Below, in pieces: positions 3,670 through 35,811 of a DNA stretch of 64,000 bases (position 1 is its first letter; every line of letters begins with the position of its first letter). The notes beneath the pieces are model-generated. The model made no database searches. It was not told the origin of the DNA and saw only the letters and a program-made list of their open reading frames with translations. The stretch is from assembly GCA_913778455.1 (NCBI GenBank), contig CAJYVK010000135.1:10087-74086 (forward strand), written 5' to 3'. The translations under genes were made by a program, and so were the position numbers. The stretch comes from an uncultured Hymenobacter sp. GTDB lineage: Bacteria > Bacteroidota > Bacteroidia > Cytophagales > Hymenobacteraceae.

Positions 3670-6600
3670 TAATGGGCAACTAACTCACGCTCTGGCTGAG
3701 CCACCGGCTCCGGCGCATCCAAGTTTTTCGGCTTCTCGAAGCTGGCAAACAGCACGTACAAGCCCGGAATCAGCACCATGCCGAAGACGGTGCCGATGAG
3801 CATGCCGCCCGCCGCCGCCGTGCCGATGGAGCGGTTGCCGAGCGCGCCAGCCCCGCTGGCCATCACCAGCGGAATGCGGCCGGCGATGAAGGCGAAGGAA
3901 GTCATCAGGATGGGCCGCAGGCGCGATACCGCACCCTGCACGGCGGCTTCCAGGACAGTGGCCCCGGCGCGGCGGCGCTGCTAGGCAAACTCGATGACGA
4001 GGATGGCATTCTTACCCAGTAGACCGATGAGCATCACGAGGGCCACCTGGGCGTAGATGTTGTTTTCGAGCCCCAGCAGCTTGAGGCTGAGGAAGGCCCC
4101 GAAGACGCCGGTGGGCAGGCTCAGCAGCACCGGCAGCGGCAGCAGCAGGCTCTCGTACTGGGCAGCCAGTAGCAGATACACGAAAATGAGCACGATGCCA
4201 AACACGTAGAGCGCCTGGTCGCCGCTCAGAATTTGCTCGCGGGTCATGCCGCTCCACTCGTAGCTGAAGCCTCGCGGGAGCACGTCGGCGGCGACTTTTT
4301 CGATGGCCGAGATGGCGTCGCCCGAGCTGTGGCCCGCGGCGGCGTCGCCGTTGATCATGGCCGAGGTGTACATGTTATAGCGCGTGAGCTGGTCGGGACC
4401 GAAGACGCGCTCTAGCTTCACGAACGTGGAGAAGGGTACGAGCTCGCCGCGGTTGTTCTTGACGTGCAGGGCCAGCAGGTCGTCGGGGCGGCCACGGTAC
4501 TCGGGGCCGGCCTGTACCATCACTTTGTACATCTGGCCGAAGCGGATGAAGTTGCTGGCGTAGTAGCTACCCAGCAGGGTTTGCAGGGTGCTCATGGCCT
4601 TATCTACGGTCACGCCTTTTTTGGCGGCCATGTCCTGGTCGATGTGGATGAGGTACTGCGGAAAGTTAGGGTCGAAGCCCGTGAACGCGCCGTTGATGGC
4701 CGGCGACTTTTGCAGGGCGGTGAGGAAGGTTTGCGACACCTTGGCGGTTTGCTGCAAGTCGCCGCGGCCCGACTTATCCAGCAGCCGCAGCTCAAAGCCG
4801 CTGCTGTTGCCGAAGCCCGGCACCGTGGGCGGCGGTAGGAACTGAATGTCGGCGTCGGCGATGCCCGCCGTTTTCTTTTCCAGCTCCTTAATTACGTCGG
4901 CCACCGACTGCTCGCGCTCGTCCCAGGCCTTGAGGTTGATCATGCCCATGCCGTAGCTGGAGCCGGCCACTTCGTTGACCAGGCTGTAGCCAGCCAGGGT
5001 CGAAACCGATTCTACCGGCCCCATTTTCTGGGCGATGCGCTGCACCTGGGCCAGTACGGCCTCGGTGCGCTCCACGGTGGCCCCGGCTGGGGTGGTCACG
5101 TTGATGTACACCATGCCCTGGTCCTCGGTCGGGATAAAGCCTGAGGGCAAAATGCGACTCACGCCCCAGGTTGCTCCGAAAAAGAGCAGCAGCGCCCCAA
5201 TAGTCACTACGCGGCGGCCAGCGATGCCACCCAGCAGGCGCTGGTAGCCGCCGGCCAGCCCCTCGTACTTATTGTTAAAGCCTTTGAAGAACCGGCCCAC
5301 GAGGCCCGTGCGCTCGCCCTCGTGCTGCTTGAGCATGAGCGCGCACAAGGCGGGCGTGAGCGTCACGGCGTTGACGCCCGAAATAACAATGGCGATGGCC
5401 AGCGTAAGCGAAAACTGGCGGTAGAACACGCCCACCGGCCCGTCCATGAACGATACCGGGATGAATACCGCCGACATGACCAACGTAATGGCAATCAGTG
5501 AGCTGCTGATTTCGTGCATGGCCTCGAAGGTGGCGCTGCGGGCGTCCATGTGCTTTTCCTCCATTTTGGCGTGCACGGCCTCGACTACCACGATGGCGTT
5601 ATCGACCACGATGCCGATGGCCAACACCAGCGCGAAGAGCGTGAGCAGATTAATCGAAAAGCCCAGCATCTGCATGAAAGCCAGCGTGCCGATGAGCGCC
5701 ACCGGTACGGCCAGCGCCGGAATGAGCGTGGAGCGCCAATCCTGCAAAAACAAGTACACAATGACGAATACCAGCAAGAACGCCTCCACCAGCGTGCGCA
5801 GCACCTCGTGAATACTGGCGTCGAGAAAGCGCGACACGTCGTAGGCGATGCTGTACTTCATGCCGGGCGGGAAGCTCGTGGCTTGTAATTCGGCCATGCG
5901 CTTTTTCACGTTGGCGATGACGTCGCTGGCATTGGAGCCGGGGCGCTGCTTGAGCATGATGGCCGCCGAGGGCTGCCCGTCGTTTTTCGACGACATGCCG
6001 TAGGTGAGCGAGCCAAATTCTACGTCGGCCACCGCCTTGAGGCGCAGTACCGAGCCGTCGGGGTTCGAGCGAATGACGATGTTGCGGTACTGGTCGGGCT
6101 CGAAAAACTTGCCGGTGTAGCGCAGCACGTACTGGAGCTGCTGGGCCGCGCCGCCCGAGCTTTCGCCCGACTTACCCGGGGCCGCCTCCACGTTTTGCGC
6201 CCGAATGGCTTCCACAATCTCGTCGGTACCCACGTCGTAGGCCGCCATGCGGTCGGGCTTCAGCCACACCCGCATCGAGTACTCACGCGAGCCCATAATC
6301 TCGGCAAAGCCCACGCCGTTGATGCGCTTGAGCTCCTGCAAGACGTTGATGTCGGCAAAGTTGTAGATAAATTTCTCGCCCGCCGTCTTGTCGTCGCTCG
6401 TGATGTTGAGGTAGAGCAGCATGGAGTTTACCTCCTTCTCGGTAGTCACACCAGCCTTAATTACCTCCTCGGGCAGCTCGTCGATCACGGTCGTGACGCG
6501 GTTCTGCACGCCCACGGCCGCCAGGTCGGGGTCGGTGCCCACCTCAAAGAATACCGTGATGAGCGTCACACCGTTGTTTGAGCTGACCGAGTTCATGTAG

Positions 6601-6827
6601 GTCATGCCCGGCACGCCGTTGATGGCGCGTTCCAGCGGCGTGGCCACGGCCTTGGCGCACACCTCGGCATTGGCCCCGGTGTACTTGGCCGTCACTGTCA
6701 CCGAGGGCGGCACGATGTCGGGAAACTGCGTGATGGGCAGTGTGTACAAAGCCAGCCCGCCCAGCAGCACCAGAAACACGGAGATGACCAGCGAGAGTAT
6801 CGGCCGGCGAATGAAGATATCGAACAT
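3669..6827 (-). pseudogene. AcrB/HAE1-type RND efflux permease interrupted by one in-frame TAG (3981-3983)
   Basis: Start MFDIFIRRPILSLV at 6827. ORFs 3981-6917 and 3669-3941 are in the same frame. The read-through sequence is ...[40 protein letters not shown]..., matching the conserved TM10-TM12 region of RND pumps. Confidence 0.8.
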
Positions 6828-6837
6828 AGAGCGTAGC

Positions 6838-6936
6838 GCGGACTCTGCGAGTCCGCACGTTAAGAGACATAGCGAAAAGAGATAATCAGCCGCTGATGAA
6901 GACGTTGCGCAACACACGCGGACTCGCAGAGTCCGC
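6838..6936. repeat. Pair of REP-like palindromes GCGGACTCTGCGAGTCCGC (6838-6856) and GCGGACTCGCAGAGTCCGC (6918-6936) in opposite orientation
   Basis: Perfect 8-bp stems. The pair occupies the 119-nt spacer between the adaptor stop and the pump start. The same family occurs at 10031-10089 and 33542-33709. Confidence 0.85.
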
Positions 6937-6946
6937 GCTGCGTCGG

Positions 6947-8104
6947 TTACTGCGCGGCCACGGCCAGCGAGTCCATCATCACGGCCTTGGCCTTGATTTG
7001 CTGCTTGTCGCGCAGCTCGGGCGCCCCTTCGTACACCACGCGCTCGCCGGGCTTCAGCCCATCCTTCACCACGTAGAAGTCGCCGAGGCGTGTCTGGGGC
7101 GTGAAGCTGCGGGTGTGCACCGTGCTATTCTGGTCCACCACGTACACGAAGTTTTGGTCCTGAATCTCAAACACGGCCTTTTGCGGCAGCAGTAGCGCGG
7201 TGGGTAATTGGCTGGTCAGGCGCACTTTGCCCGAGGCCCCGTGCTTGAGCAGGCGGTCGGGGTTGGGGAAACGGGCCCGCAGGGCGATGGAGCCGGTGTT
7301 GGGGTTGAACTCGCTCTCGGCCGTTTCGATGTGGCCGGTGAGCGGGTAGGGGTCGCCATTGGCGAGGGTGAGGCGTACCGAGTCGGAGTGCAGCTCGGGG
7401 TGCTCGCGGCGGGCCTTGCTGTAGTTCATGTAGCTGCCCTCCGCCACGTCGAAATAGGCGAATACCGAGCTCAAATCCGATACCGTCGTGAGCAGGGTAC
7501 CTTCCTCCACCACGCTGCCCACCTTGAGCGGAATGCGGTCGAGCACGCCGTCGAAGGGAGCCCGCACCAGCGTGTAGCCCAGGCTGAGGCGGGCAGCGGC
7601 CACCCCGGCGAGGGCGTCGGCTACGCGGGCATCGGCCTCCTTCACCTTGCTCGTGGAGAGGGCCAGCTCGGTCTTCGCAATGATATTTTTATCGACCAGC
7701 AGGCGCACCCGGTCGCGCTCCACGCGCACGGCGGCGGCCTGGGCCTGGGCGCTGGCCACGGCCGCCTGGGCCTGGCTTAGCTTGTTTTGGTAAGCGCTGG
7801 CGTTGAGGCGGAAGAGCGGCTGGCCCTTCTTCACGGGCTTGCCCTCATCCACAAAAATCTGCTCCAGGAAGCCGGCCACCTGGGCCCGCACTTCCACGTT
7901 GCGCACGGCCTGCACGTCGGCCACGTAGTCGCGGTGCAGCTGCTGCTCCGAGGTTTTGAGCGTCACGACGGGTACCACGGGCGGGGCCTCGGCAGTGTCC
8001 TTTTCGGCCTTAGCCGAGCAGCCACCCAGGCCCAGCGCCAGTAAGCCCGCGGCGCTGGCCGTGGCGAGGTAATGAAATAAGGAGCAGCTATTCAAGGGGT
8101 TCAT
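6947..8104 (-). CDS. Efflux RND transporter periplasmic adaptor (AcrA/HlyD_D23 family) lipoprotein
   Basis: ATG at 8104 gives MNPLNSCSLFHYLATASAAGLLALGLGGC (lipobox). It has the typical MFP barrel-sandwich and coiled-coil regions. The ORF-track start at 8122 is TTG. Confidence 0.9.
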   Translation of the reverse strand: MNPLNSCSLFHYLATASAAGLLALGLGGCSAKAEKDTAEAPPVVPVVTLKTSEQQLHRDYVADVQAVRNVEVRAQVAGFLEQIFVDEGKPVKKGQPLFRLNASAYQNKLSQAQAAVASAQAQAAAVRVERDRVRLLVDKNIIAKTELALSTSKVKEADARVADALAGVAAARLSLGYTLVRAPFDGVLDRIPLKVGSVVEEGTLLTTVSDLSSVFAYFDVAEGSYMNYSKARREHPELHSDSVRLTLANGDPYPLTGHIETAESEFNPNTGSIALRARFPNPDRLLKHGASGKVRLTSQLPTALLLPQKAVFEIQDQNFVYVVDQNSTVHTRSFTPQTRLGDFYVVKDGLKPGERVVYEGAPELRDKQQIKAKAVMMDSLAVAAQ

Positions 8105-16836: not shown

Positions 16837-17994
16837 TTACTCAAATACCACGGGCACATCTACCACCTGCGCGGCCCGGCGGCCGGCCGTGACGCCCGGC
16901 ACCCAGGTGGGGCCTTCTTTCACCAAGCGGACAGCCTCGGCGTCGTAGTCGGGGCGTAGCTTGCGCACGGCCTCGGCCTGCTCAATTTTGCCGTCGGCCC
17001 CCAGGTGCAGGCGTACCAGTACCCGGCCCCGCTGGCGGCCCCCGTCGCGGCTGGCGGGCTCAAAGTCGGCTGCGCCTTTTTTCAAATACTCGCGCAGGGC
17101 CGCGTAGCCGCCGCTGGGGGTGGCAGGCAGCGCCGGGGGCGCGGGCATGGTAGCCCGCAGCGGTGCCCCTGACTCCAGCGCCGGGGCTCTTGCGACCTTG
17201 GGGGCTGGGGCCGCCAGCGGTTCGCGGTTCGGCTCGGGGCGGGCCAAAGCGTTCGAATCAGTAGCCACGCTTGGCGCGGATGCCGCCGCTGGCGCTGCGC
17301 TAGTGTAGTCGGCAGGTTGCTCCGGGCGGCCACTCAACGTGTTTGTAGGCGCGGCTGGGGTACGATCAGCAGTTACCGGCTCAGCTTTAGCGGTAACTGA
17401 AGGGTGTTTGCCGCGTCTACTTCTGGCCGTGCTGGGGGGAGCAGGATTATTTTCAAGCTCACGCTGGGCCGTAGTTGAAACGCTTTCGGTACTCAAGGCA
17501 GCGCGTTGAGCGGTGGTGGGCGTCGTCTCAGCATCTGTTGTCGGGCTGCTAGGCGCGGCGGGAATAGCTTGACGGCTGAGCGTTGCGGCCGGATACTGCG
17601 CCGCCACCGTAGTCGGAGCCTGGCGCCGTTGCTGCCAGGTCCACCAGCCCGCCGCTACCAGCCCCAGGATAAGCGCAGCGGCGGCCGCCAACTGCGGAGC
17701 CAGCCAGCGATGCCGCCGCGGAGCCGCCACCAACTGCCGGGCTGGGGCGGCCTGCTGCACTCGCTGACGCAGGCGCTGTTGCAACTGGGCTAAAGCTTGG
17801 TCGGTAGTGGCCGCCGGCGTTTGAAGCAGGCCTTCCAAAATATCGGCGCAGCGGGGGCAGGCCAGGGTGTGCGCCTCTACGCGGTGCTGGGCCGCCGGGG
17901 CCAGCGTGCCCGCCGCGTACTGGCGCAGCAGCGCCACCGGCAGGTGCGGGCCAGCCGGGGCGGTAGCGTTCAGCAGCGGGTTGGTCGGCAGCAT
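16837..17994 (-). CDS. Anti-sigma factor: zf-HC2 N-domain, TM helix, Pro/Ala/Thr-rich linker, TonB-C-like domain
   Basis: H-x3-C-x2-C motif (VEAHTLACPRC), TM WLAPQLAAAAALILGLVAAGWW, C-terminal TonB_C-like fold. It is immediately downstream of the ECF sigma gene. Confidence 0.7.
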   Translation of the reverse strand: MLPTNPLLNATAPAGPHLPVALLRQYAAGTLAPAAQHRVEAHTLACPRCADILEGLLQTPAATTDQALAQLQQRLRQRVQQAAPARQLVAAPRRHRWLAPQLAAAAALILGLVAAGWWTWQQRRQAPTTVAAQYPAATLSRQAIPAAPSSPTTDAETTPTTAQRAALSTESVSTTAQRELENNPAPPSTARSRRGKHPSVTAKAEPVTADRTPAAPTNTLSGRPEQPADYTSAAPAAASAPSVATDSNALARPEPNREPLAAPAPKVARAPALESGAPLRATMPAPPALPATPSGGYAALREYLKKGAADFEPASRDGGRQRGRVLVRLHLGADGKIEQAEAVRKLRPDYDAEAVRLVKEGPTWVPGVTAGRRAAQVVDVPVVFE

Positions 17995-18088: not shown

Positions 18089-18766
18089 TTACACCTCGCC
18101 CTTCAGGCCCATTTCTTTGCTGAGCGTGCGTTTGAGCATCCGGCGGCCGTTTTGCAGGTGGCTTTTGACGAGATTGACGGCTAGGCCGGTAATGGCTACA
18201 ATCTCCTGATACGATTTTTCTTCCAGATAAAACAGCTCCAGGCAGCGGCGTTGTTCGGGTGGTAGCTGGGCCAGGGCCAGTTCCAGGGCTTGCAGGTCGG
18301 CCTCGCGCTGGGTGGCTTCGTCGGTCTCAGCCCCGGCATCGGGCAGATGCCGGGCGGCGGCGTTTTCCACATCGGTAGCCTCGGGGAAAAGCACCAGCGG
18401 GCCGCCGCTGGCCGTGCCGCGCTGCCGGGCGCGCAGCTCCATAAGGCAAAAATTACGCGCCGTGGTGTAGAGCCAGGCGCCGAAATTATCGGGAGCGTGG
18501 GTGCGCAGCTTTACCACCAATTGCTCGAAAAGCTGCATTGCGGCGTCCTGCGCATCCTCGTCGGGCGGGGCCAGGTAGCGGCGGCACACGGCAAATACCT
18601 CGGGCAAGTGCCGCTCGTAGAGCAGCCCCAGCGCGGCCACGTCGCCATTCTGGCGGTAGCGAGCCAGCACCTCCTGGTCGGAGGCCAGCGCGGAGGCAGG
18701 GGCGGCAGAAGCACGGCGGCGGAAGAACACGGCAGCAAAATACGCCCCGCCGGCCCGTTGGGCCAC
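18089..18766 (-). CDS. ECF-type RNA polymerase sigma-70 family factor
   Basis: Region 2 (LLYERHLPEVFAVCRRYL, AWLYTTARNFCLMELR) and region 4 (RRCLELFYLEEKSYQEIVAITGLAVNLVKSHLQNGRRML). The start is uncertain (GTG at 18766 or an internal GTG). Confidence 0.85.
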   Translation of the reverse strand: MAQRAGGAYFAAVFFRRRASAAPASALASDQEVLARYRQNGDVAALGLLYERHLPEVFAVCRRYLAPPDEDAQDAAMQLFEQLVVKLRTHAPDNFGAWLYTTARNFCLMELRARQRGTASGGPLVLFPEATDVENAAARHLPDAGAETDEATQREADLQALELALAQLPPEQRRCLELFYLEEKSYQEIVAITGLAVNLVKSHLQNGRRMLKRTLSKEMGLKGEV

Positions 18767-27326: not shown

Positions 27327-28961
27327 ATGCCCACCGAAATTAAAATCCCCGCCGTTGGCGAATCCATCACCGAAGTCACGATTGCTAAGTGGCTCAAGAA
27401 AGACGGCGAGGCCGTGAAGCGCGACGAGGTAATCGCCGAGCTGGAATCGGACAAGGCCACGTTTGAGTTGCCCGCCGAAGCCGACGGTACCCTCAAAATC
27501 CTGGTAGCCGAAGGCGAAACCATCGGCATCGGCACGGCCATCGCCCAGCTCGACGGGACCGGTGCCCCGGCGGGCGACAGCCCGGCCGCCGCGCCTGCCG
27601 CTGGCGGTGATGCCCTCGCCAAAGGTGAGCAAAACCCCGCGGCCAGCGACCAGAGCGGCTACGGTGGCCAGCCCGCCGACCGTCACGCAGCCGACGCCGC
27701 GACGCCCGGCGCCCCGGCGGCCAGCGGTGGCACGGTTGAAATGAAGATTCCCGCCGTGGGCGAGTCCATCACCGAAGTAACGGTGGCCAAATGGCTCAAG
27801 CCCGACGGTGCCCAGGTGAGCCGCGACGAGGTGATTGCCGAGCTGGAATCGGACAAGGCCACGTTTGAATTGCCCGCCGAGGGCAACGGCACGCTGCGCC
27901 ACGCAGTGAAAGAAGGCGAAACCATCGGGATCGGGGCGCTCATCGCCCGCATTGAAAGTGGCAGCGGCGCAGCGGCTCCGGCCGCCAGCGCGCCCGCTCC
28001 GGCAGCGGCTGCCCCCGCGGCGGCGCAACCGGCCAGCGGTGGCGCGGCTACCTACGCCAGCGGCGTGCCTTCGCCGGCCGCCGGTAAAATCTTGGGTGAG
28101 AAGGGTATCAACCCGGCCGACGTGGCTGGCACGGGCCGCGATGGCCGCATCACCAAGGAAGACGCGCAGAATGCCCAGACCAAGCCCGCTGCCCCGGCTC
28201 CGGCCGCTAAGCCGACCGCTCCGGCCCCGGCCAGCGCTGCCCCCGCTGCCCCGGCTGGGGAGCGCGGTCAGCGTCGCGAGCGCATGAGCAACCTACGCAA
28301 GACGGTAGCGCGCCGCCTGGTGACGGTGAAAAACGAGACGGCCATGCTCACCACCTTCAACGAGGTGAATATGCAGCCCATCATGGACCTGCGCAGCAAG
28401 TTCAAAGACAAGTTCAAGGAGAAAAACGGCGTGAACCTGGGCTTTATGTCCTTCTTCACCAAGGCCGTGTGCGTGGCCCTGCAAGAGTGGCCGGCCGTGA
28501 ACGCCTACATCGACGGCGACAGCATTGTGTACTCCGACTTCTGCGACATCAGCATTGCCGTGTCGGCTCCCAAAGGGCTGGTGGTACCGGTGATTCGTAA
28601 CGCCGAGAAGCTAAGCTTCGATGGCATCGAGAAGGAAGTGGTGCGCCTGGCTGGCCTGGCCCGCGACAACAAGCTCACCATTGAGCAAATGACGGGCGGC
28701 ACGTTCACCATCACCAATGGTGGCATCTTCGGCTCGATGCTGAGCACGCCCATCATCAATGCGCCGCAATCGGCCATTCTGGGCATGCACAACATCATTC
28801 AGCGCCCCGTGGCCGAGAACGGTCAAGTGGTGATTCGCCCCATGATGTACCTCGCCCTGAGCTACGACCACCGCATCATCGACGGCCGCGAATCGGTGTC
28901 GTTTCTGGTGCGCGTGAAGGAGCTGCTCGAAGACCCGACCCGCTTGCTGCTCGGTGTTTAG
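27327..28961 (+). CDS. sucB: Dihydrolipoyllysine-residue succinyltransferase (E2o) with two lipoyl domains
   Basis: Two [14 protein letters not shown] lipoyl-attachment motifs, Ala/Pro linkers, an E3-binding domain and the catalytic domain with DHRIIDG. Confidence 0.97.
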
Positions 28962-29017: not shown

Positions 29018-29157
29018 ATGTAAACTTCATCTTGCAGAAACTTGTTAACCAATGCGTTGTTTTATGTAACCCTTCACCTCTGAATATTGCTAGCTGTCGC
29101 TTTCCTTCCTGGGCATAGTACCTTTGATAGTCTGCTTGCATAGCAAATTTGCGTATC

Positions 29158-29868
29158 ATGAGCCGCTTCCTGTCCCCCAACTGCCATAATTGCCCCAGCC
29201 GCCAAAGCCCGCTGATGAGCTGTTGCGTGCAGGAAGAACTGGATTTCATCGCCACTTCCAAGACGGCTCAGTTTTACCACAAGGGCCAGACTATCTTCCA
29301 GCAGGGTAGCCCCGTACTGGGGATGCACTGCATTCACCAAGGCAAGGTGAAGATGTCGAAGGTGGGCGGCGACGGCAAGGAGCACATTATGCGGCTGGTG
29401 CGCCAGGGCGATGTGATGGGCTTTCGACCGCTGCTGAGCGGCGGGCCGTACACGACCTCGGCCGTGGCGCTCGAAGACTCGGTAGTGTGCTTCGTGCCCC
29501 GGCCCGATGTGCTGCGCATTATCCAGTCCAACCGCCAGTTTGCCAACGTGCTGCTTCAGCAGATGGCCGCTGGTCTGGGCGAGGCCGAGGAGCGCCTGCT
29601 GCGCATGGCCTACAAGCCTGTACGCGAGCGCCTGGCCGAAGCCCTGATGGTAGTGCGGCGCACCTTCGGGCCAGCCAGCCCCAGCAGCGTGCCTTTCAGT
29701 ACGGCCATCTCGCGCGACGACCTGGCTGCGCTGGTCGGCACGGCCAAGGAAACCGTAAGCCGGCTGCTGACCGAGTACAAGGATGAGGGCATCATCACTA
29801 CCCGGGGGAGCCAAATAACCATCCTGAGCGAAGAAAGGCTGGTAGCCATTTCTACGCGCTACGATTAA
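29158..29868 (+). CDS. Crp/Fnr-family transcriptional regulator with N-terminal Cys cluster
   Basis: cNMP-binding-like beta-barrel plus C-terminal HTH (RDDLAALVGTAKETVSRLL). The N-terminus is MSRFLSPNCHNCPSRQSPLMSCC. The ATG at 29158 is preferred over the TTG at 29149. Confidence 0.9.
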   Translation: MSRFLSPNCHNCPSRQSPLMSCCVQEELDFIATSKTAQFYHKGQTIFQQGSPVLGMHCIHQGKVKMSKVGGDGKEHIMRLVRQGDVMGFRPLLSGGPYTTSAVALEDSVVCFVPRPDVLRIIQSNRQFANVLLQQMAAGLGEAEERLLRMAYKPVRERLAEALMVVRRTFGPASPSSVPFSTAISRDDLAALVGTAKETVSRLLTEYKDEGIITTRGSQITILSEERLVAISTRYD

Positions 29869-29888: not shown

Positions 29889-30688
29889 CTAGGACGTGTT
29901 AACAGTGATTGGTAACTTGCGGGATGGAAAATATGCTCACGGATGCGCAATGGGCGCGGCTAGCGCCACTCTTGCCGGGTCGGGAAGGCACGAGCGGCGG
30001 GCGCGGGCGCAACAACCGCCAATTCGTGGAGGCCGTGTTGTGGCTGGCCCGCAACGGGGCCCGGTGGCGGGCCCTGCCGCCGGAGCGGGGCAACTGGCAC
30101 ACGACCTACACGCGCTTCCAGCGCTGGGCCGCCTCGGGCGTGTGGCAACGCGTGTTCGAGGCTGTGCAGGACGAAGCGGCCCTGCACACGCTGCTGGTCG
30201 ATTCGACCACCGTGCGGGCGCACCAGCACGCGGCCGGGGCGCGCAAAAAAACGGACCGCAGGCCCTGGGACGCAGCCGCGGCGGGCTGAGCTGCAAGCTG
30301 CACGCCGTGGCCGACGCCCGCGGCCGGCCCGTGCGTTGCTGCCTCACGGCCGGCCAGCGCCACGATGCCCCGCACGCCTTGCCCCTGCTCGAGGGCCTGG
30401 CCCCGGCCCACCTGATTGCCGACCGGGGCTACGATTCGGACCCGCTGGTGGCTGCCCTGGCTGCCCGCGGCACCGTGGCCGTGATTCCGCCTCGCCGCAA
30501 GCGGCGCCACCCGCGGCCTTACGACCCGGCCCGCTACGCCCAGCGACACCCCGTTGAGCGGCTCTTCTGTCGCCTCAAACAGTTTCGACGCGTGGCCACC
30601 CGTTACGACAAGCTGGACCGGCATTTTCTGGCTTTCATTCACTTGGCTGCAACCGTCCTTTGGCTGCGTGACTGTTAACACTTCCTAG
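29889..30688 (+). mobile_element. IS5-family insertion sequence (IS427/IS1031-like, about 0.8 kb)
   Basis: Imperfect terminal inverted repeats: CTAGGACGTGTTAACAGTGA (left) and the reverse complement of the right end, CTAGGAAGTGTTAACAGTCA. Two overlapping transposase frames. Exact ends and the target duplication (TA within CTAG?) are not resolved. Confidence 0.85.
29924..30678 (+). CDS. IS5-family DDE transposase produced by -1 programmed frameshift at A7 (30245-30251)
   Basis: OrfA (MLTDAQWARLAPLLPG..., DUF4096-like) ends at 30289. The -1 frame continues NGPQALGRSRGGLSCKLHAV...DRGYDSD...RYDKLDRHFLAFIHLAA (DDE_Tnp_1). The slippery run is CGC AAA AAA ACG. Confidence 0.85.
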
Positions 30689-30696
30689 TTCATTCC

Positions 30697-30738
30697 AAAG
30701 CCAACGTCCAGTTTTGAAACTGGACGTTGGCTTTTTTT
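30697..30738 (+). terminator. Intrinsic terminator, probably the original crp/fnr terminator displaced by the IS
   Basis: AAAGCCAACGTCCAGTT...AACTGGACGTTGGCTTT followed by TTTT, starting 9 nt after the IS right end. Confidence 0.8.
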
Positions 30739-31001
30739 GTGCAATTTGGAGAGTAGGCGCGGGGAAGGTCCAAATGTGAGAAAAAGAGGTAAAATCTGGA
30801 AACAAAAATTACTAAAATAATCCAAAATTATGTAGACAATGAAAAATGGATTTTGATAAAAATCAGGAAAAAAAGTGACGCAGGTCATTTTTTTAATTTG
30901 TTCTTAAGTTGAGTTTTGTAGCAAGTAATCAGTGTAGTTAGCCGGTTCAGTGGTGGAGTAAATGATGCCCCAACCTGAGTTTAGTAATTTTCGTTAAAAA
31001 T

Positions 31002-31009
31002 TATTTTTG
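31002..31009 (+). promoter_or_regulatory. Candidate -7 box (TATTTTTG) upstream of the roadblock-like cluster
   Basis: TAnnTTTG match in the strongly AT-rich 30.74-31.10 kb region, about 95 nt upstream of the ATG at 31104. Confidence 0.25.
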
Positions 31010-31103
31010 TCCAATTAAAGTGGTTTTCTGCTTAGGCTCGGTTGAGCTTAAAAAACTTGATTAGCTGCGTCCGACTGGGCAATGATAATCCCGCCTGAGT
31101 GCT

Positions 31104-31553
31104 ATGAACTTGACCTTTTTACGCTATCTGCCCGGCCTGGGCGGCCCGCCCGTTCGGCAGGTAGTACCGGGTCCTGGCTCGGCTAGCGGTCCGGCTCCGG
31201 CCGCCCTGCACTACCTACTGGCTGAGTTACCCGAACTACTGTTCGCCGCCGTGCTTGACTTGTCTTCCGGCCAACTACTAGCTACCTACGCCGCCGACCG
31301 CGACCACCAACCCAGCCTGGTAGCGCCGGCGGTGACGGCGGCCATCCGGCAGGCAGCCTTGCTCAGCCAAGAGCCCGCCGAAGAGCTGACCGAACTGCTG
31401 CTCACGTTGTCGAGTCAGCTGCATTTGGTACGGCTGCGGCCCGGCGGCCAGCAGGCGCTGTACCTGGCCATCGGCAGCCACGATACCAACCTGGCGCTGG
31501 CCCGCCAGGTAGCCGAAGACGCCGTACAGCTACTGGCGACCTCGATTGCCTAG
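31104..31553 (+). CDS. Roadblock/LC7-like (MglB-type fold) protein, paralogue 1 (149 aa)
   Basis: Paralogous to 32457-32837 (LLLTLSSQLHLVRLRPGGQQALYLAIGSHDTNLALARQV versus ILITLTNQLHLIKLNPAGSKFIYLVVNSRDTNLAIAREV). The fold call comes from the sequence pattern only. Confidence 0.55.
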   Translation: MNLTFLRYLPGLGGPPVRQVVPGPGSASGPAPAALHYLLAELPELLFAAVLDLSSGQLLATYAADRDHQPSLVAPAVTAAIRQAALLSQEPAEELTELLLTLSSQLHLVRLRPGGQQALYLAIGSHDTNLALARQVAEDAVQLLATSIA

Positions 31554-31609
31554 TACTTGATTGATTTCCAGTTATTTTCTTCCTCACCCACTCTCCCCCT
31601 TCTTTTTTT

Positions 31610-32290
31610 ATGAAGCTCACGGCTACCCCTTTCGACCCCCAAACCGGCGAGTTGTTGCCCGTCTACCGCGACGCTTACCTGCGCGGTGACCTCGCCCGCG
31701 CCTCGGCCCAGGCCGTGGAAGCCTACCTGCACCGCGACGCTGGCCAGGCGCACACCACCGTGACGCGCTGGCACCAGCTGCAAGCCACCGATGCTCCGGC
31801 CGCCGCGCCCACTTGGGTACGGAAGCAGGTGCAGTTCATCCGCGAGCAGCCGCAGCGCTTTCGTCGCCGCGCCCTCAGTTTCGTGACGGTAGCGGCATTG
31901 CTGGCTGGCGTGAGCATGGCTGCTACCAACCGCCCCTCCGTGGTGCTGCCCCTCGCCAAGCTGCCGGTAGCCAGTGCGCTGCCCGCCGCCAGCCTTGAAG
32001 TAGCCGCCGCGGCCCCGGCCGCCGCTCGTACCGTGCTGGTGCACGGCCGCATCCTCAATGAAAAGGGCCAGCCGCTCGCCGGAGCTACCGTGCTACACAA
32101 GGGTACTACCGTGGGCACTAGTACCGATGCCCAGGGCAATTACTCGCTACGCGTGCCCGCTACTGCCCAGACCACGCTACAGTACGGCTACGGGGGCTAC
32201 ACCGAGCAGGAGGTAGCCGCCAGCCACGCCGGGACTACCGTTACCCTCCAGCCCAAGCCGGCTAAGCGTCACCGCTGGCTGTTTTTCTAG
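31610..32290 (+). CDS. Single-pass membrane protein: Cys-less anti-sigma-like N-domain, TM helix, CarboxypepD_reg-like C-domain (226 aa)
   Basis: N-terminal YLRGDLARASAQAVEAYLHRD resembles the zf-HC2 motif of 16837-17994 without its Cys. TM is LSFVTVAALLAGVSMAA. The C-terminus is VLVHGRILNEKGQPLAGATVL...DAQGNYSLRVP. Confidence 0.6.
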   Translation: MKLTATPFDPQTGELLPVYRDAYLRGDLARASAQAVEAYLHRDAGQAHTTVTRWHQLQATDAPAAAPTWVRKQVQFIREQPQRFRRRALSFVTVAALLAGVSMAATNRPSVVLPLAKLPVASALPAASLEVAAAAPAAARTVLVHGRILNEKGQPLAGATVLHKGTTVGTSTDAQGNYSLRVPATAQTTLQYGYGGYTEQEVAASHAGTTVTLQPKPAKRHRWLFF

Positions 32291-32456
32291 AGTGTGCGGC
32301 GGGGGTAGGCTACGCTGCCCCCGCTGCCGCAAACGCGCAGTGAAATCAAACACCTCGCGGCGGCGTGCCAGCCGCCAGTTTCGGGTGGCCGCGCGGCAGC
32401 AGCAAGCTGCCCTGGCGTCGCCCATTCTTCCCACTTCCCCCTCTTCTCCAGCCACT

Positions 32457-32837
32457 ATGGCTTACTCTAAAAATACGCCCGCCGGGCAAGCCGTCGAAGG
32501 CATTATCACTGACCTGCCGGGCCTGATGGCCGTGGCCGTGGTTGACGTAAGCTCGGGCATGGCCCTGGCCTCGCACTCCAACTCGCCGAGCATCAACCCC
32601 GAAACGGCCGCCGCCTACAATACCGAGGTGGTGAAGCAAAAACAGAAGGCCATGCAGGCCCTCAAGCTTCAGGGCGAAACGATTGAGGACATCCTCATCA
32701 CCCTGACCAACCAGCTGCACCTTATTAAGCTCAATCCCGCCGGCTCCAAGTTTATCTACCTCGTAGTGAACTCCCGCGATACCAACCTGGCCATTGCCCG
32801 CGAGGTGCTGCGTGGGCACGCGACGAGCATCAACTAG
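32457..32837 (+). CDS. Roadblock/LC7-like protein, paralogue 2 (126 aa)
   Basis: ATG at 32457 (MAYSKNTPAGQAVEGIITDLPGLMAVAVVDVSSGMALAS...). The ORF-track start at 32292 is an Arg-rich extension. Confidence 0.65.
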   Translation: MAYSKNTPAGQAVEGIITDLPGLMAVAVVDVSSGMALASHSNSPSINPETAAAYNTEVVKQKQKAMQALKLQGETIEDILITLTNQLHLIKLNPAGSKFIYLVVNSRDTNLAIAREVLRGHATSIN

Positions 32838-32865: not shown

Positions 32866-32898
32866 AGCCCTTCCGGCCTTCGGGCCGGGAGGGCTTTT
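32866..32898 (+). terminator. Intrinsic terminator of the three-gene cluster
   Basis: AGCCCTTCCGGCC-ttcg-GGCCGGGAGGGCT followed by TTT. Confidence 0.75.
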
Positions 32899-32945: not shown

Positions 32946-33530
32946 ATGAAACGTGCTGTTTTGATGGGCTACCTGAGCAGCCTGCTGGCTGGGTGCGAGC
33001 CGCCCGCCCCGCAGCGAGTGGCGACCCCGCCGGCTGCCCATATCGCCCCGCCACCCGCCGCCCGGGTGGCCGTGCCGAAAGACGCCATTCAGGGCGATTT
33101 CGACGGCGATGGCACCCCCGAATACGTGTGGCTGGTGCCGCCCGCCATCGACTCAACCGGCGAAGACTGCGTGGGCAGCTGCGTGAGCTACCTCACCTCC
33201 TCTAACCCCCGGCTGCGTCCCTACGCGCTCAAGCAGTCCATCGGCGGCGAGTTGACGAAGTTTACTGGTCTCGGGCCTGGCCGGCGCGACTATCTGGGTA
33301 TTCTACCCCAGTGGTTTACGAGCTGCTGGGCCAGCTACTACGTGCTTACGTATCAGCCTGGGGGCTGGGGAGAAGCCGTGCCGGCGTTCTCTACGCACTG
33401 CAATCAGTGGGAAGACAGGGTAGTGCCCATTGCGCCCGATAGTGCGCACCCGGGCCACGTCATTGTCCGCTACAGTGAGTTTAGCAACGACTCCATTCTA
33501 GTTAAGGCTAAGTCGGTGCCGTTGAAATAG
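32946..33530 (+). CDS. Hypothetical lipoprotein with an FG-GAP/VCBS-like DxDxDG motif (194 aa)
   Basis: Lipobox LSSLLAGC and the motif GDFDGDGTPEYVWL. No further family assignment. Confidence 0.6.
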   Translation: MKRAVLMGYLSSLLAGCEPPAPQRVATPPAAHIAPPPAARVAVPKDAIQGDFDGDGTPEYVWLVPPAIDSTGEDCVGSCVSYLTSSNPRLRPYALKQSIGGELTKFTGLGPGRRDYLGILPQWFTSCWASYYVLTYQPGGWGEAVPAFSTHCNQWEDRVVPIAPDSAHPGHVIVRYSEFSNDSILVKAKSVPLK

Positions 33531-34301: not shown

Positions 34302-34404
34302 CCGCTTACTTGGCGAAAAAGCGCGGGTGTCGGGGGCGAGCCGCCCGCGGCACCCGCGTATCTTTGTCGGAACCAACCGGCGGTTTGAGCCTGTTTTCGT
34401 TCCT

Positions 34405-35811
34405 ATGAATCAATACGACGTTACCGTCATCGGCTCGGGGCCGGGCGGCTATGTGGCTGCCATTCGCTGCGCCCAGCTGGGCTTCAAAACGGCCCTCATC
34501 GAGAAGTATCCCACCCTGGGCGGCACCTGCCTCAACGTGGGTTGCATTCCGAGCAAGGCCCTGCTCGACAGCACCGAGCACTACCATAATGCCCACACCA
34601 CCTTCAAGGAGCACGGCATTGAGCTGGAAAACCTGGCGGTGAACATGAACCAGATGATCGACCGTAAAAACGGCGTCGTGAAGGCCAACGTGGACGGTAT
34701 CGCCTACCTGATGAAGAAAAACAAAATCGACGTGCTCAAGGGCGTCGGTTCGTTTGTCGATAAAAACCACCTCAGCATCGCGCCCACCGAGGGCGGCGAG
34801 GCGCAGCAGATTGAAACCAAGAACGTCATCATCGCTACCGGCTCCAAGCCCACGGTGCTGCCGTTCATCCAGCAGGACAAGCAGCGCATCATTACCAGCA
34901 CTGAGGCGCTGAACATCCGCGAGGTGCCCAAGCACCTCATCGTGATTGGCGGCGGCGTGATCGGCCTCGAAATGGCGTCGGTGTACGCCCGCGTGGGTGC
35001 CAAAGTGAGCGTGGTCGAGTTTACCGACAGCCTCATCCCCACGATGGACCTCGCGCTGGGCAAGGAGCTGAAGCGCATCCTGGGTAAAATCGGCATTCAG
35101 TTCTACCTCGGCCACAAGGTGACGAGCGCCACCCGCGAGGGCGACGCCGTAACCGTGACCGCCACCACGCCCAAGGGTGAGGAGCTGAAGCTGGAGGGCG
35201 ACTACTGCCTCGTAGCCGTGGGCCGCGCCCCTTACACGGCTGGCCTCAACCTCGAAGCTGCCGGCGTCGAAATGGAAGAGCGAGGCCGCATCAAGGTCGA
35301 TGCCCACCTGCAAACCAACGTGCCCGGCATCTACGCCATCGGCGACGTGGTGCGCGGGGCCATGCTGGCCCACAAGGCCGAAGAAGAAGGCGTATTCGTG
35401 GCCGAAACTATTGCCGGCCAAAAGCCGCACGTTAATTATCTGCTCATTCCCGGGGTGGTGTACACCTGGCCCGAGGTGGCTGGCGTGGGCTTCACCGAGG
35501 AGCAGCTCAAGCAAGAGGGCCGCGCCTATAAAACCGGCTCATTCCCCTTCAAGGCCAGCGGCCGCGCCCGCGCCAGCATGGACACCGACGGCTTCGTGAA
35601 AGTGCTGGCCGACAAGACCACCGACGAAATTCTGGGCGTGCACATGATCGGCCCGCGCATCGCCGACCTCATCGCCGAGGCCGTGACCGCGATGGAATTC
35701 CGCGCCTCCGCCGAGGACGTGGCCCGCATGAGCCACGCCCACCCCACCTACGCCGAGGCCATGAAAGAGGCCTGCCTGGCGGCTACGGAGAACCGGGCGA
35801 TTCACATGTAA
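34405..35811 (+). CDS. lpdA: Dihydrolipoyl dehydrogenase (E3)
   Basis: ATG at 34405 (MNQYDVTVIGSGPGGYVAA), redox-active GGTCLNVGCIPSK, NAD site GGGVIGLE, C-terminal HAHPT. Confidence 0.97.
   Translation: MNQYDVTVIGSGPGGYVAAIRCAQLGFKTALIEKYPTLGGTCLNVGCIPSKALLDSTEHYHNAHTTFKEHGIELENLAVNMNQMIDRKNGVVKANVDGIAYLMKKNKIDVLKGVGSFVDKNHLSIAPTEGGEAQQIETKNVIIATGSKPTVLPFIQQDKQRIITSTEALNIREVPKHLIVIGGGVIGLEMASVYARVGAKVSVVEFTDSLIPTMDLALGKELKRILGKIGIQFYLGHKVTSATREGDAVTVTATTPKGEELKLEGDYCLVAVGRAPYTAGLNLEAAGVEMEERGRIKVDAHLQTNVPGIYAIGDVVRGAMLAHKAEEEGVFVAETIAGQKPHVNYLLIPGVVYTWPEVAGVGFTEEQLKQEGRAYKTGSFPFKASGRARASMDTDGFVKVLADKTTDEILGVHMIGPRIADLIAEAVTAMEFRASAEDVARMSHAHPTYAEAMKEACLAATENRAIHM

Follow-up and report, generated by a model that had tools for sequence, protein, structure and literature searches.

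Predicted roadblock-fold paralogues are linked to a putative bitopic membrane protein with a SusC-type domain in a gene module of Hymenobacter

We analyzed a 64,000-nucleotide stretch of DNA (the window) from an uncultured Hymenobacter sp. (contig CAJYVK010000135.1, positions 10,087 to 74,086 of the forward strand) and describe here a conserved module of three genes on its plus strand, termed A (31104–31553), B (31610–32290), and C (32457–32837). A and C are paralogues of 149 and 126 residues with a predicted roadblock fold, and B is a predicted single-pass membrane protein of 226 residues that carries a free-standing copy of the domain called the N-terminal extension (NTE) in SusC-type transporters. 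The genes are syntenic across Hymenobacter, and no small GTPase, sigma factor, or kinase is encoded in the cluster. We tentatively favor the view, plausible but short of probable, that the module specifies a membrane-anchored roadblock heteromer, in which an A–C pair would sit on the cytoplasmic tip of B and would link the NTE-like domain in the periplasm with an effector whose gene lies elsewhere. The initial annotation of this region, made from the DNA letters alone, had recognized three co-directional genes that form an undescribed envelope module; the open reading frames (ORFs) were confirmed, and our literature search gave no description matching this arrangement.

A and C had been taken for paralogues of the roadblock/LC7 (MglB-type) fold, and both parts of this assignment held. 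In BLASTP, the two proteins share 42 of 114 aligned residues (37% identity, E 1e-24), which is far beyond chance and marks them as paralogues at the sequence level. An AlphaFold2 model of C, based on 28 sequences, reached a mean predicted local distance difference test score (pLDDT) of 90.4 and a predicted template modeling (TM) score of 0.86, with the topology α-β-β-α-β-β-β-α (helices 8–19, 48–68, and 111–125; strands 23–30, 35–41, 78–82, 86–92, and 98–105). Foldseek found 113 matches to this model in the PDB at E ≤ 1e-3, and the best 50 of these were all MglB, Roadblock (archaeal or from Streptomyces), MglC, or LAMTOR structures, with TM-scores of 0.58–0.80 at only 8–24% identity. The top matches, which were MglB (3t1s, 3t12, 6hjm, and 1j3w), Roadblock (9jue and 3kye), and LAMTOR, had a Foldseek probability of 1.0, with TM-scores of 0.65–0.80 to structures of these three kinds. 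We are confident that the modeled fold of C is the roadblock/MglB fold. The same fold is assigned to A because of its paralogy to C. The assignment as such is not new, since homologues of C already bear the names Roadblock/LC7/MglB or Roadblock/LAMTOR2 in JGI (COG-based) and UniRef. The two paralogues differ in their conservation: C is 79–95% identical across Hymenobacter, which is unusually high, and no other member of the module is as conserved, whereas 65 homologues of A cover 45–100% identity, so that A is much less conserved. An exact match to A (P0121) is present in public data.

For B, a single transmembrane helix, an Ala/Pro linker, and a CarboxypepD_reg-like domain had been proposed, and this layout was recovered by profile searches and in a structural model. 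Residues 1–87 (31610–31870, plus strand) form a predicted cytoplasmic N-terminal domain, which begins with a near-invariant segment of 28 residues and continues with a helical segment; 18 of the 28 columns do not vary, even in a comparison of paralogues whose overall identity is only about 45–50%. In the model, the N-terminal helices comprise residues 17–25, 30–60, and 68–79. Residues 88–140 (31871–32029, plus strand) cover the sole transmembrane helix, modeled at 82–102, and a disordered Ala/Pro-rich periplasmic linker, for which pLDDT falls below 50 over residues 102–138 and which differs between homologues in both its length and its sequence. As the cluster RFRRRA precedes the only transmembrane helix, the N-terminus is expected to be inside, and sequence and model together imply a bitopic protein with N-in/C-out topology.

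The remaining part of B (residues 141–226; 32030–32290, plus strand) consists of a predicted periplasmic Ig-like β-sandwich and a conserved tail of basic and aromatic character with the sequence KRHRWLFF. The β-sandwich (residues 141–212) was matched by PF13715 at 3.5e-14 and by PF13620 at 3.5e-11 over residues 144–213, and the SusC/RagA profile TIGR04056 aligned at 1e-15 with its positions 3–73 out of 981, a score of 57 bits where the cut-off is 368. Sequence matches in the PDB included 9hfj, 6sli, and 6ytc, and Foldseek superimposed the domain on 9hfj with a TM-score of 0.88, a root-mean-square deviation of 1.4 Å, and 34% identity, with 37% identity to 6ytc. From profiles and model, the β-sandwich is therefore predicted to be specifically an NTE domain of the SusC type. 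B ends about 11 residues after this domain, with neither a plug nor a barrel, and it is for this reason not a transporter. The tail (residues 216–226; 32255–32287) follows the pattern K[KR]xRW[LF]xF, is conserved in all B-type proteins, including those at L134–L145, and occupies the place where SusC carries its TonB box.

The synteny of the three genes is strong. We scanned a genome collection with C as the seed and classified the ORFs of the resulting loci with family hidden Markov models as M (B-type), R1 (C-type, at least 70% identical to C), or r (any other roadblock paralogue). The 79 loci obtained in this way all belong to Hymenobacter or its close relatives; a scan with a single protein as seed reaches close relatives only. 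The most frequent architecture was R1-r-M-r (24 loci), followed by r-M-R1 (11 loci), which is the type of the window and of the clade of L004–L014, r-R1-r-M-R1 (9 loci), and R1-r-M-R1 (4 loci); minor architectures were also present. In every one of these loci that has a B-type gene, this gene adjoins roadblock genes, and A is always found upstream of it. A reciprocal metagenome scan, seeded with the N-terminal motif of B alone, gave 55 loci in which the architecture of M was constant, and nearly all M genes with several hundred bases of flank had roadblock neighbors, the exceptions being short contigs or partial M genes. Synteny of the genes across related genomes was thus found from both seeds. 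The proposal of a three-gene module needs to be modified, however. The trio is real and syntenic, but it is specific to one clade, as most Hymenobacter carry four or five genes with three to four roadblock paralogues. The trio of the window is thus the minimal form of a module of three to five genes, with a core of r, M, and a second roadblock gene that belongs to the R1 class in the window type.

A further link between r and M is found at the N-terminus of the r-class proteins. The peptide MxIPFL was present in 74 of 102 loci with M as compared to 3 of 29 loci without it, and these three were truncated contigs. A of the window begins with MNLTFLRYL and thus carries the variant MNLTFL. The recovered B-type proteins came only from Hymenobacter, from close relatives (Solirubrum), and from unclassified metagenome contigs.

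The layout of the locus agrees with a transcription unit of its own. The co-directional genes are separated by gaps of 56 bp (A–B) and 166 bp (B–C). For C, we placed the start at the ATG at 32457, as the resulting 126 residues are the commonest length among the listed relatives, which leaves a longer ORF with a GTG start at 32292 unsupported. The AT-rich region that had been noticed upstream of A was confirmed, with a GC content of 0.35–0.45 over 30550–31149 as compared to 0.56–0.71 across A, B, and C, and its intergenic part (30735–31103, plus strand) presumably contains the promoter of the module. AT-rich spacers precede the module also at other Hymenobacter loci (GC 0.31–0.59, and at most 0.50 in 19 of 22). 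A copy of the Bacteroidetes −7 promoter motif TAnnTTTG at 31002 was considered and dropped: most other loci have no comparably placed copy, and the closest relative has none at all. As this motif is not conserved elsewhere, the promoter was not located. On the 3′ side, the proposed terminator (32866–32898, plus strand) was verified as an intrinsic-terminator-like hairpin. Its 13-bp stem, which includes one G·U pair, is closed by a UUCG loop (stem-loop 32866–32895) and followed by UUUU, and the folding energy is −36.1 kcal/mol (z = −6.0 relative to shuffled sequences). A consensus terminator scanner skipped it only because its T-run has four instead of five T. On the 5′ side, the terminator of the upstream crp-like gene (30697–30734, plus strand), which consists of a perfect inverted repeat of 18 bp with a T-run behind it, is the boundary of the module's transcription unit.

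Together, these data suggest a Hymenobacter-lineage module that may assemble roadblock proteins into a complex at the cytoplasmic side of the inner membrane. The long flexible linker of B would tether the SusC-type NTE copy in the periplasm, and the invariant N-terminal residues, about 28 in number, would face the cytoplasm together with the helices that follow. A (r-class) and C (R1-class), as diverged cytoplasmic paralogues, would form a heterodimer and dock on the cytoplasmic tip of B, much as LAMTOR1 holds roadblock heterodimers on the lysosome or as in CvnA-CvnB of the actinobacterial conservon. C and residues 1–28 of B are the two most constrained elements of the module, which fits a shared interface. 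The complex may then relay an envelope signal, caught by the NTE-like domain, to an effector whose gene lies elsewhere. This signal may concern the machinery of TonB and TonB-dependent transporters, with which SusC NTE domains have been hypothesized to pair. Relatives of A and C occur in signaling contexts (fusions with REC and PATAN domains, a SpoIIE–roadblock–REC arrangement, and a pair with Robl_LC7 in Streptomyces), which we count in favor of a signaling heteromer.

Several observations weigh against this heteromer model. At the sequence level, Pfam Robl_LC7 (PF03259) did not match A or C at E ≤ 1, no NCBIfam profile matched either protein, a profile of the A/C family found nothing among PDB sequences at E ≤ 10, and hhalign against a Streptomyces Robl_LC7 protein was null (Prob 0.16%). 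The homology of A and C to MglB is thus drawn from the fold and from third-party names based on COG and InterPro. The structural models are monomers of B and C, and the model of B is of only moderate confidence in its N-terminal part (pLDDT 72–82 for residues 1–50 and about 54–66 for residues 51–100). With the full B model, Foldseek matched only the β-sandwich, leaving the N-terminal helices without a structural relative. Roadblock genes also occur without a B-type gene, as R1 alone in 13 loci and as r-R1 in 9 loci, and they are for this reason not dedicated to B. No output component of the module was identified. Finally, the pairing of the NTE with TonB has itself been put forward only as a hypothesis (PMC7782687; bioRxiv 10.64898/2026.09.16.752182).

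One metagenome-assembled genome illustrates how far the module can be reduced. At L052 (4735–7926), r and M are missing and only R1 is left between crp and lpd, from which it follows that R1 can be kept where the other module genes are absent.

A bolder version of the heteromer model is conceivable, although we consider it improbable. B could be a decoy or sensor copy of the NTE on the inner membrane that shares the periplasmic partner of the SusC NTE, for example the C-terminal domain of a particular TonB, and could report the occupancy of this partner to the cytoplasm via a roadblock heterodimer that works independently of a GTPase. If true, this would be a new trans-envelope signaling route and would provide a first genetic handle on NTE binding.

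The alternative that survives best, which we regard as unlikely but worth serious consideration, is that A and C are MglB-type regulators (GTPase-activating proteins, guanine nucleotide exchange factors, or adaptors) of an unlinked Ras-like GTPase of the MglA/Rup family, with B as a mere anchor and with polarity, gliding, or the positioning of an envelope machine as output. The best structural matches of C are indeed MglB in complex with MglA, and MglC, and JGI labels homologues as "predicted regulator of Ras-like GTPase activity". There are also cases of orphan mglB genes whose products work on an MglA system encoded at another site (PMC4316618, PMC11112851). Moreover, Rup GTPases are found in Bacteroidetes/Chlorobi, with neighborhoods that include a bitopic OmpA protein (PMC4316618). 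This recalls a second type of Hymenobacter locus with the order Usp-HlyD-MFS-X-r-R1 (L054–L070, L060, and L079; about 4000–7000 in each), in which X is either a B-like NTE protein or a 450-residue bitopic protein with a periplasmic OmpA domain. The exchange of a B-like for an OmpA-type protein at X suggests that bitopic proteins anchored in the envelope are general partners of the roadblock pairs, which we count in favor of the heteromer model. As a side aspect, these loci also have a conserved gene for a 350-residue lipoprotein downstream on the opposite strand, for which no Pfam match was obtained.

Gliding as an output would also fit the Capnocytophaga homologue, a stand-alone gene for 126 residues (L083–L085, 4500–6400) that is located just downstream of genes for a giant SprB/CHU_C-type adhesin and a PorP/SprF protein and of folB, and that thus adjoins gliding and type IX secretion genes. 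What argues against an unlinked GTPase is that no GTPase came to light where it was looked for, and that A and C lack sequence-level similarity to MglB or Robl_LC7. Neither the window nor 82 loci, taken with flanks of 6 kb, contained an ORF combining P-loop, DxxG, and NKxD motifs, although this motif search is crude and misses atypical GTPases such as MglA variants without NKxD. GTPase families were also absent from the precomputed gene lists of the examined loci and from the sampled neighborhoods of subfamily relatives. The observation that no sigma factor, small GTPase, or kinase is part of the cluster had already been made from the sequence, and it was borne out by ORFs, domain matches, and gene lists: HATPase, DUF742, and GTPase families were not found in the cluster, B carries PF13715/PF13620 only, and neither a sigma factor nor a kinase is encoded in the primary locus. 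These searches covered the window and the fetched loci, and a GTPase or sigma factor may be encoded elsewhere in the genome.

Elsewhere, the roadblock subfamily occurs in several signaling contexts. Among 1.84 billion representative proteins, the subfamily profile detected 1226 at E ≤ 1e-3, of which 373 were found at E ≤ 1e-10. The domain is located C-terminally of PATAN (DUF4388) in the metagenomic proteins P0364, P0370, P0418, P0434, and P0397, with a preceding REC domain in P0364 and P0370, and these fusions tie the subfamily to signaling of the two-component type. A SpoIIE, a roadblock protein, and REC are arranged together in a metagenome-assembled genome of the Bacteroidota. In Streptomyces (L086–L087, 3274–5375), four co-directional genes encode proteins of 128, 269, 158, and 124 residues, of which the third is a Pfam Robl_LC7 protein and the fourth, directly following it, is the subfamily member; conservon and GTPase genes are absent from this pair. 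Hymenobacter genomes also have single R1 genes or R1-R1 tandems whose neighbors encode a hybrid histidine kinase with the domains PAS-HisKA-HATPase-REC-Hpt as well as a LytTR response regulator (L040, L064, L065, L067, L069, L071, L072, and L078).

We also examined the resemblance of the N-terminus of B to anti-sigma factors, which had been proposed together with the replacement of the zinc ligands. On this basis, B could be a zinc-less class I anti-sigma factor for an unlinked extracytoplasmic function (ECF) sigma factor, with the roadblock proteins as modulators (as anti-anti-sigma factors or in a partner switch) and with the NTE-like domain in place of the FecR-type periplasmic domain that serves trans-envelope signaling from TonB-dependent transducers, a possibility that we judge to be rather remote. 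B is laid out like an anti-sigma factor, with a cytoplasmic N-terminal domain, one transmembrane helix, and a periplasmic domain, and its segment YRDAYLRGDL..AVEAYL mirrors the zf-HC2 consensus. Paralogues of B that retain the His (VDAHLK) matched zf-HC2 at E values of 0.0015–0.0065, and hhalign, used with B and the anti-sigma factor of the window, realigned the same 27 columns that had been pointed out initially, with 44% identity. However, the hhalign result is not significant (Prob 0.45%, E 0.13), zf-HC2 did not match B of the window at E ≤ 10, and its matches in 3 of 15 relatives (best 1.5e-3) were all below the 22.2-bit cut-off of Pfam. The positions of the H-x3-C-x2-C ligands are occupied by Y39, D43, and Q46, and in the model the segment lies within the long helix 30–60 and not at a helix-turn. 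A profile search of PDB sequences with the N-terminus of B gave nothing relevant, and a weak DUF1451 match over the helical stretch in 7 of 15 relatives was judged to be uninformative. As the Pfam scan of the individual members, the profile search against the PDB, and hhalign all remained below threshold, we did not classify B as an anti-sigma factor, and we regard the zf-HC2 likeness as a weak lead at the level of a motif and not as family membership. In addition, no sigma factor adjoins any of about 100 loci, whereas in the genuine pair of the window, on the minus strand, the ECF sigma factor gene (18089–18766) is adjacent to that of the anti-sigma factor (16837–17994). This anti-sigma factor has a zf-HC2 N-terminus (1.8e-5) and a periplasmic TonB_C domain (3.8e-6), the latter being notable as B bears an NTE of the type that is hypothesized to pair with TonB.

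That A, B, and C are neighbors merely by descent, without functional coupling, as the occurrence of roadblock genes apart from B might suggest, is very improbable, since adjacency and co-orientation are retained in at least four architectures and two independent locus types although paralogues were repeatedly gained and lost, since the linkage also holds in the scan seeded from B, and since the genes share short gaps, one upstream AT-rich region, and one terminator.

The surroundings of the module are conserved as well. The primary locus is always downstream of a crp-like gene, which is the direct neighbor in essentially all cases, and in most genomes it lies between sucB and lpd. In the window, sucB (27327–28961) is followed by the gene of the Crp/Fnr-family regulator (29149–29868, plus strand; cNMP_binding 3.2e-23, HTH_Crp_2 8.2e-15), which is a possible regulator of the module, although we do not claim that it belongs to it. 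Downstream, the neighbors are, in this order, genes for a putative lipoprotein and a DUF4126 membrane protein and lpd (34327–35811). The lipoprotein ORF (32946–33530) encodes 194 residues with a lipoprotein-type signal (LLAGC); it gave no family match, and among the fetched loci only L004, the closest relative, has a copy.

In this strain, an insertion sequence of the IS5 family (29889–30688; about 800 bp), which is bounded by 18-bp terminal inverted repeats (29889–29906 and 30671–30688), has inserted between the stop codon of the crp-like gene and this gene's own terminator. Its transposase is split into two frameshifted ORFs, with a DUF4096 N-terminal part detected at 2e-27. The element is absent from L004, the closest genome that was fetched, whose C is 99% identical, and the terminator of the crp-like gene is present there as well. 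It follows that the AT-rich leader is native. As the A-B-C order is the same in L004, we rejected the idea that the insertion caused the gene order. A reading of the region as a defense system was likewise rejected, as PADLOC gave no hits.

The usual view of Roadblock/LC7 proteins is that they partner small GTPases. Yet many bacterial roadblock genes are orphans, of which few have been studied; in a count from 2014, 328 of 749 MglB homologues were orphans (PMC4316618). Roadblock paralogues without GTPase-activating function can be adaptors, as is known for MglC (PDB 7ct3) and an orphan MglB (PMC11112851), a precedent for the heteromer model. In the module described here, roadblock paralogues are linked throughout the genus to one defined membrane protein instead of a GTPase gene, which makes it tractable for studying a roadblock role that does not involve a GTPase. 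Deletion of the SusC NTE in BT1763 abolishes growth (PMC7782687). An NTE paralogue that is soluble or tethered to the inner membrane and has a cytoplasmic read-out could help to identify the partner of the NTE in the nutrient import of Bacteroidota. The practical impact is limited for now by the narrow lineage in which B-type proteins were recovered.

A comparison with known systems shows which features of the module are shared and which are its own. With class I anti-sigma factors of the zf-HC2 type, B has the overall architecture and the short YLxGDL...VExYL motif in common, but a significant profile match, the H/C/C ligands, and an adjacent sigma factor are lacking. In SusC/RagA, the NTE (PF13715), to which residues 141–215 of B correspond at 34–37% identity, precedes a TonB box, a plug, and an outer-membrane barrel of 22 strands, whereas the domain of B is C-terminal, belongs to a predicted inner-membrane protein, and is followed only by KRHRWLFF. 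The conservon (CvnA-CvnB-CvnC-CvnD) likewise encodes a roadblock protein beside a membrane protein and is multi-copy per genome, as is the module, and 3kye, which is related to CvnB, is among the matches of C. However, CvnA is histidine-kinase-like, the conservon requires CvnC (DUF742) and the GTPase CvnD, which are absent here, and it has one roadblock protein in place of two to four paralogues. In Ragulator, an anchor protein that is mostly helical or unstructured keeps roadblock heterodimers at the membrane, and its structures 5y3a, 6ehp, and 1veu match C. This is an analogy only, as LAMTOR1 is lipid-anchored and not a transmembrane protein, and as Ragulator serves Rag GTPases, for which no counterpart is known here. 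The closest structural likeness is to MglB and MglC of the MglA polarity module in Myxococcus and Thermus, with the same order of helices and strands including the C-terminal helix (top matches 3t1s, 3t12_B, 6hjm, 1j3w, and 7ct3). A nearby mglA or other GTPase gene and detectable sequence similarity are missing in our case, but paralogous roadblock proteins act together in that system, MglB with MglC, as they would in the Hymenobacter module, where their predicted partner is a bitopic membrane protein.

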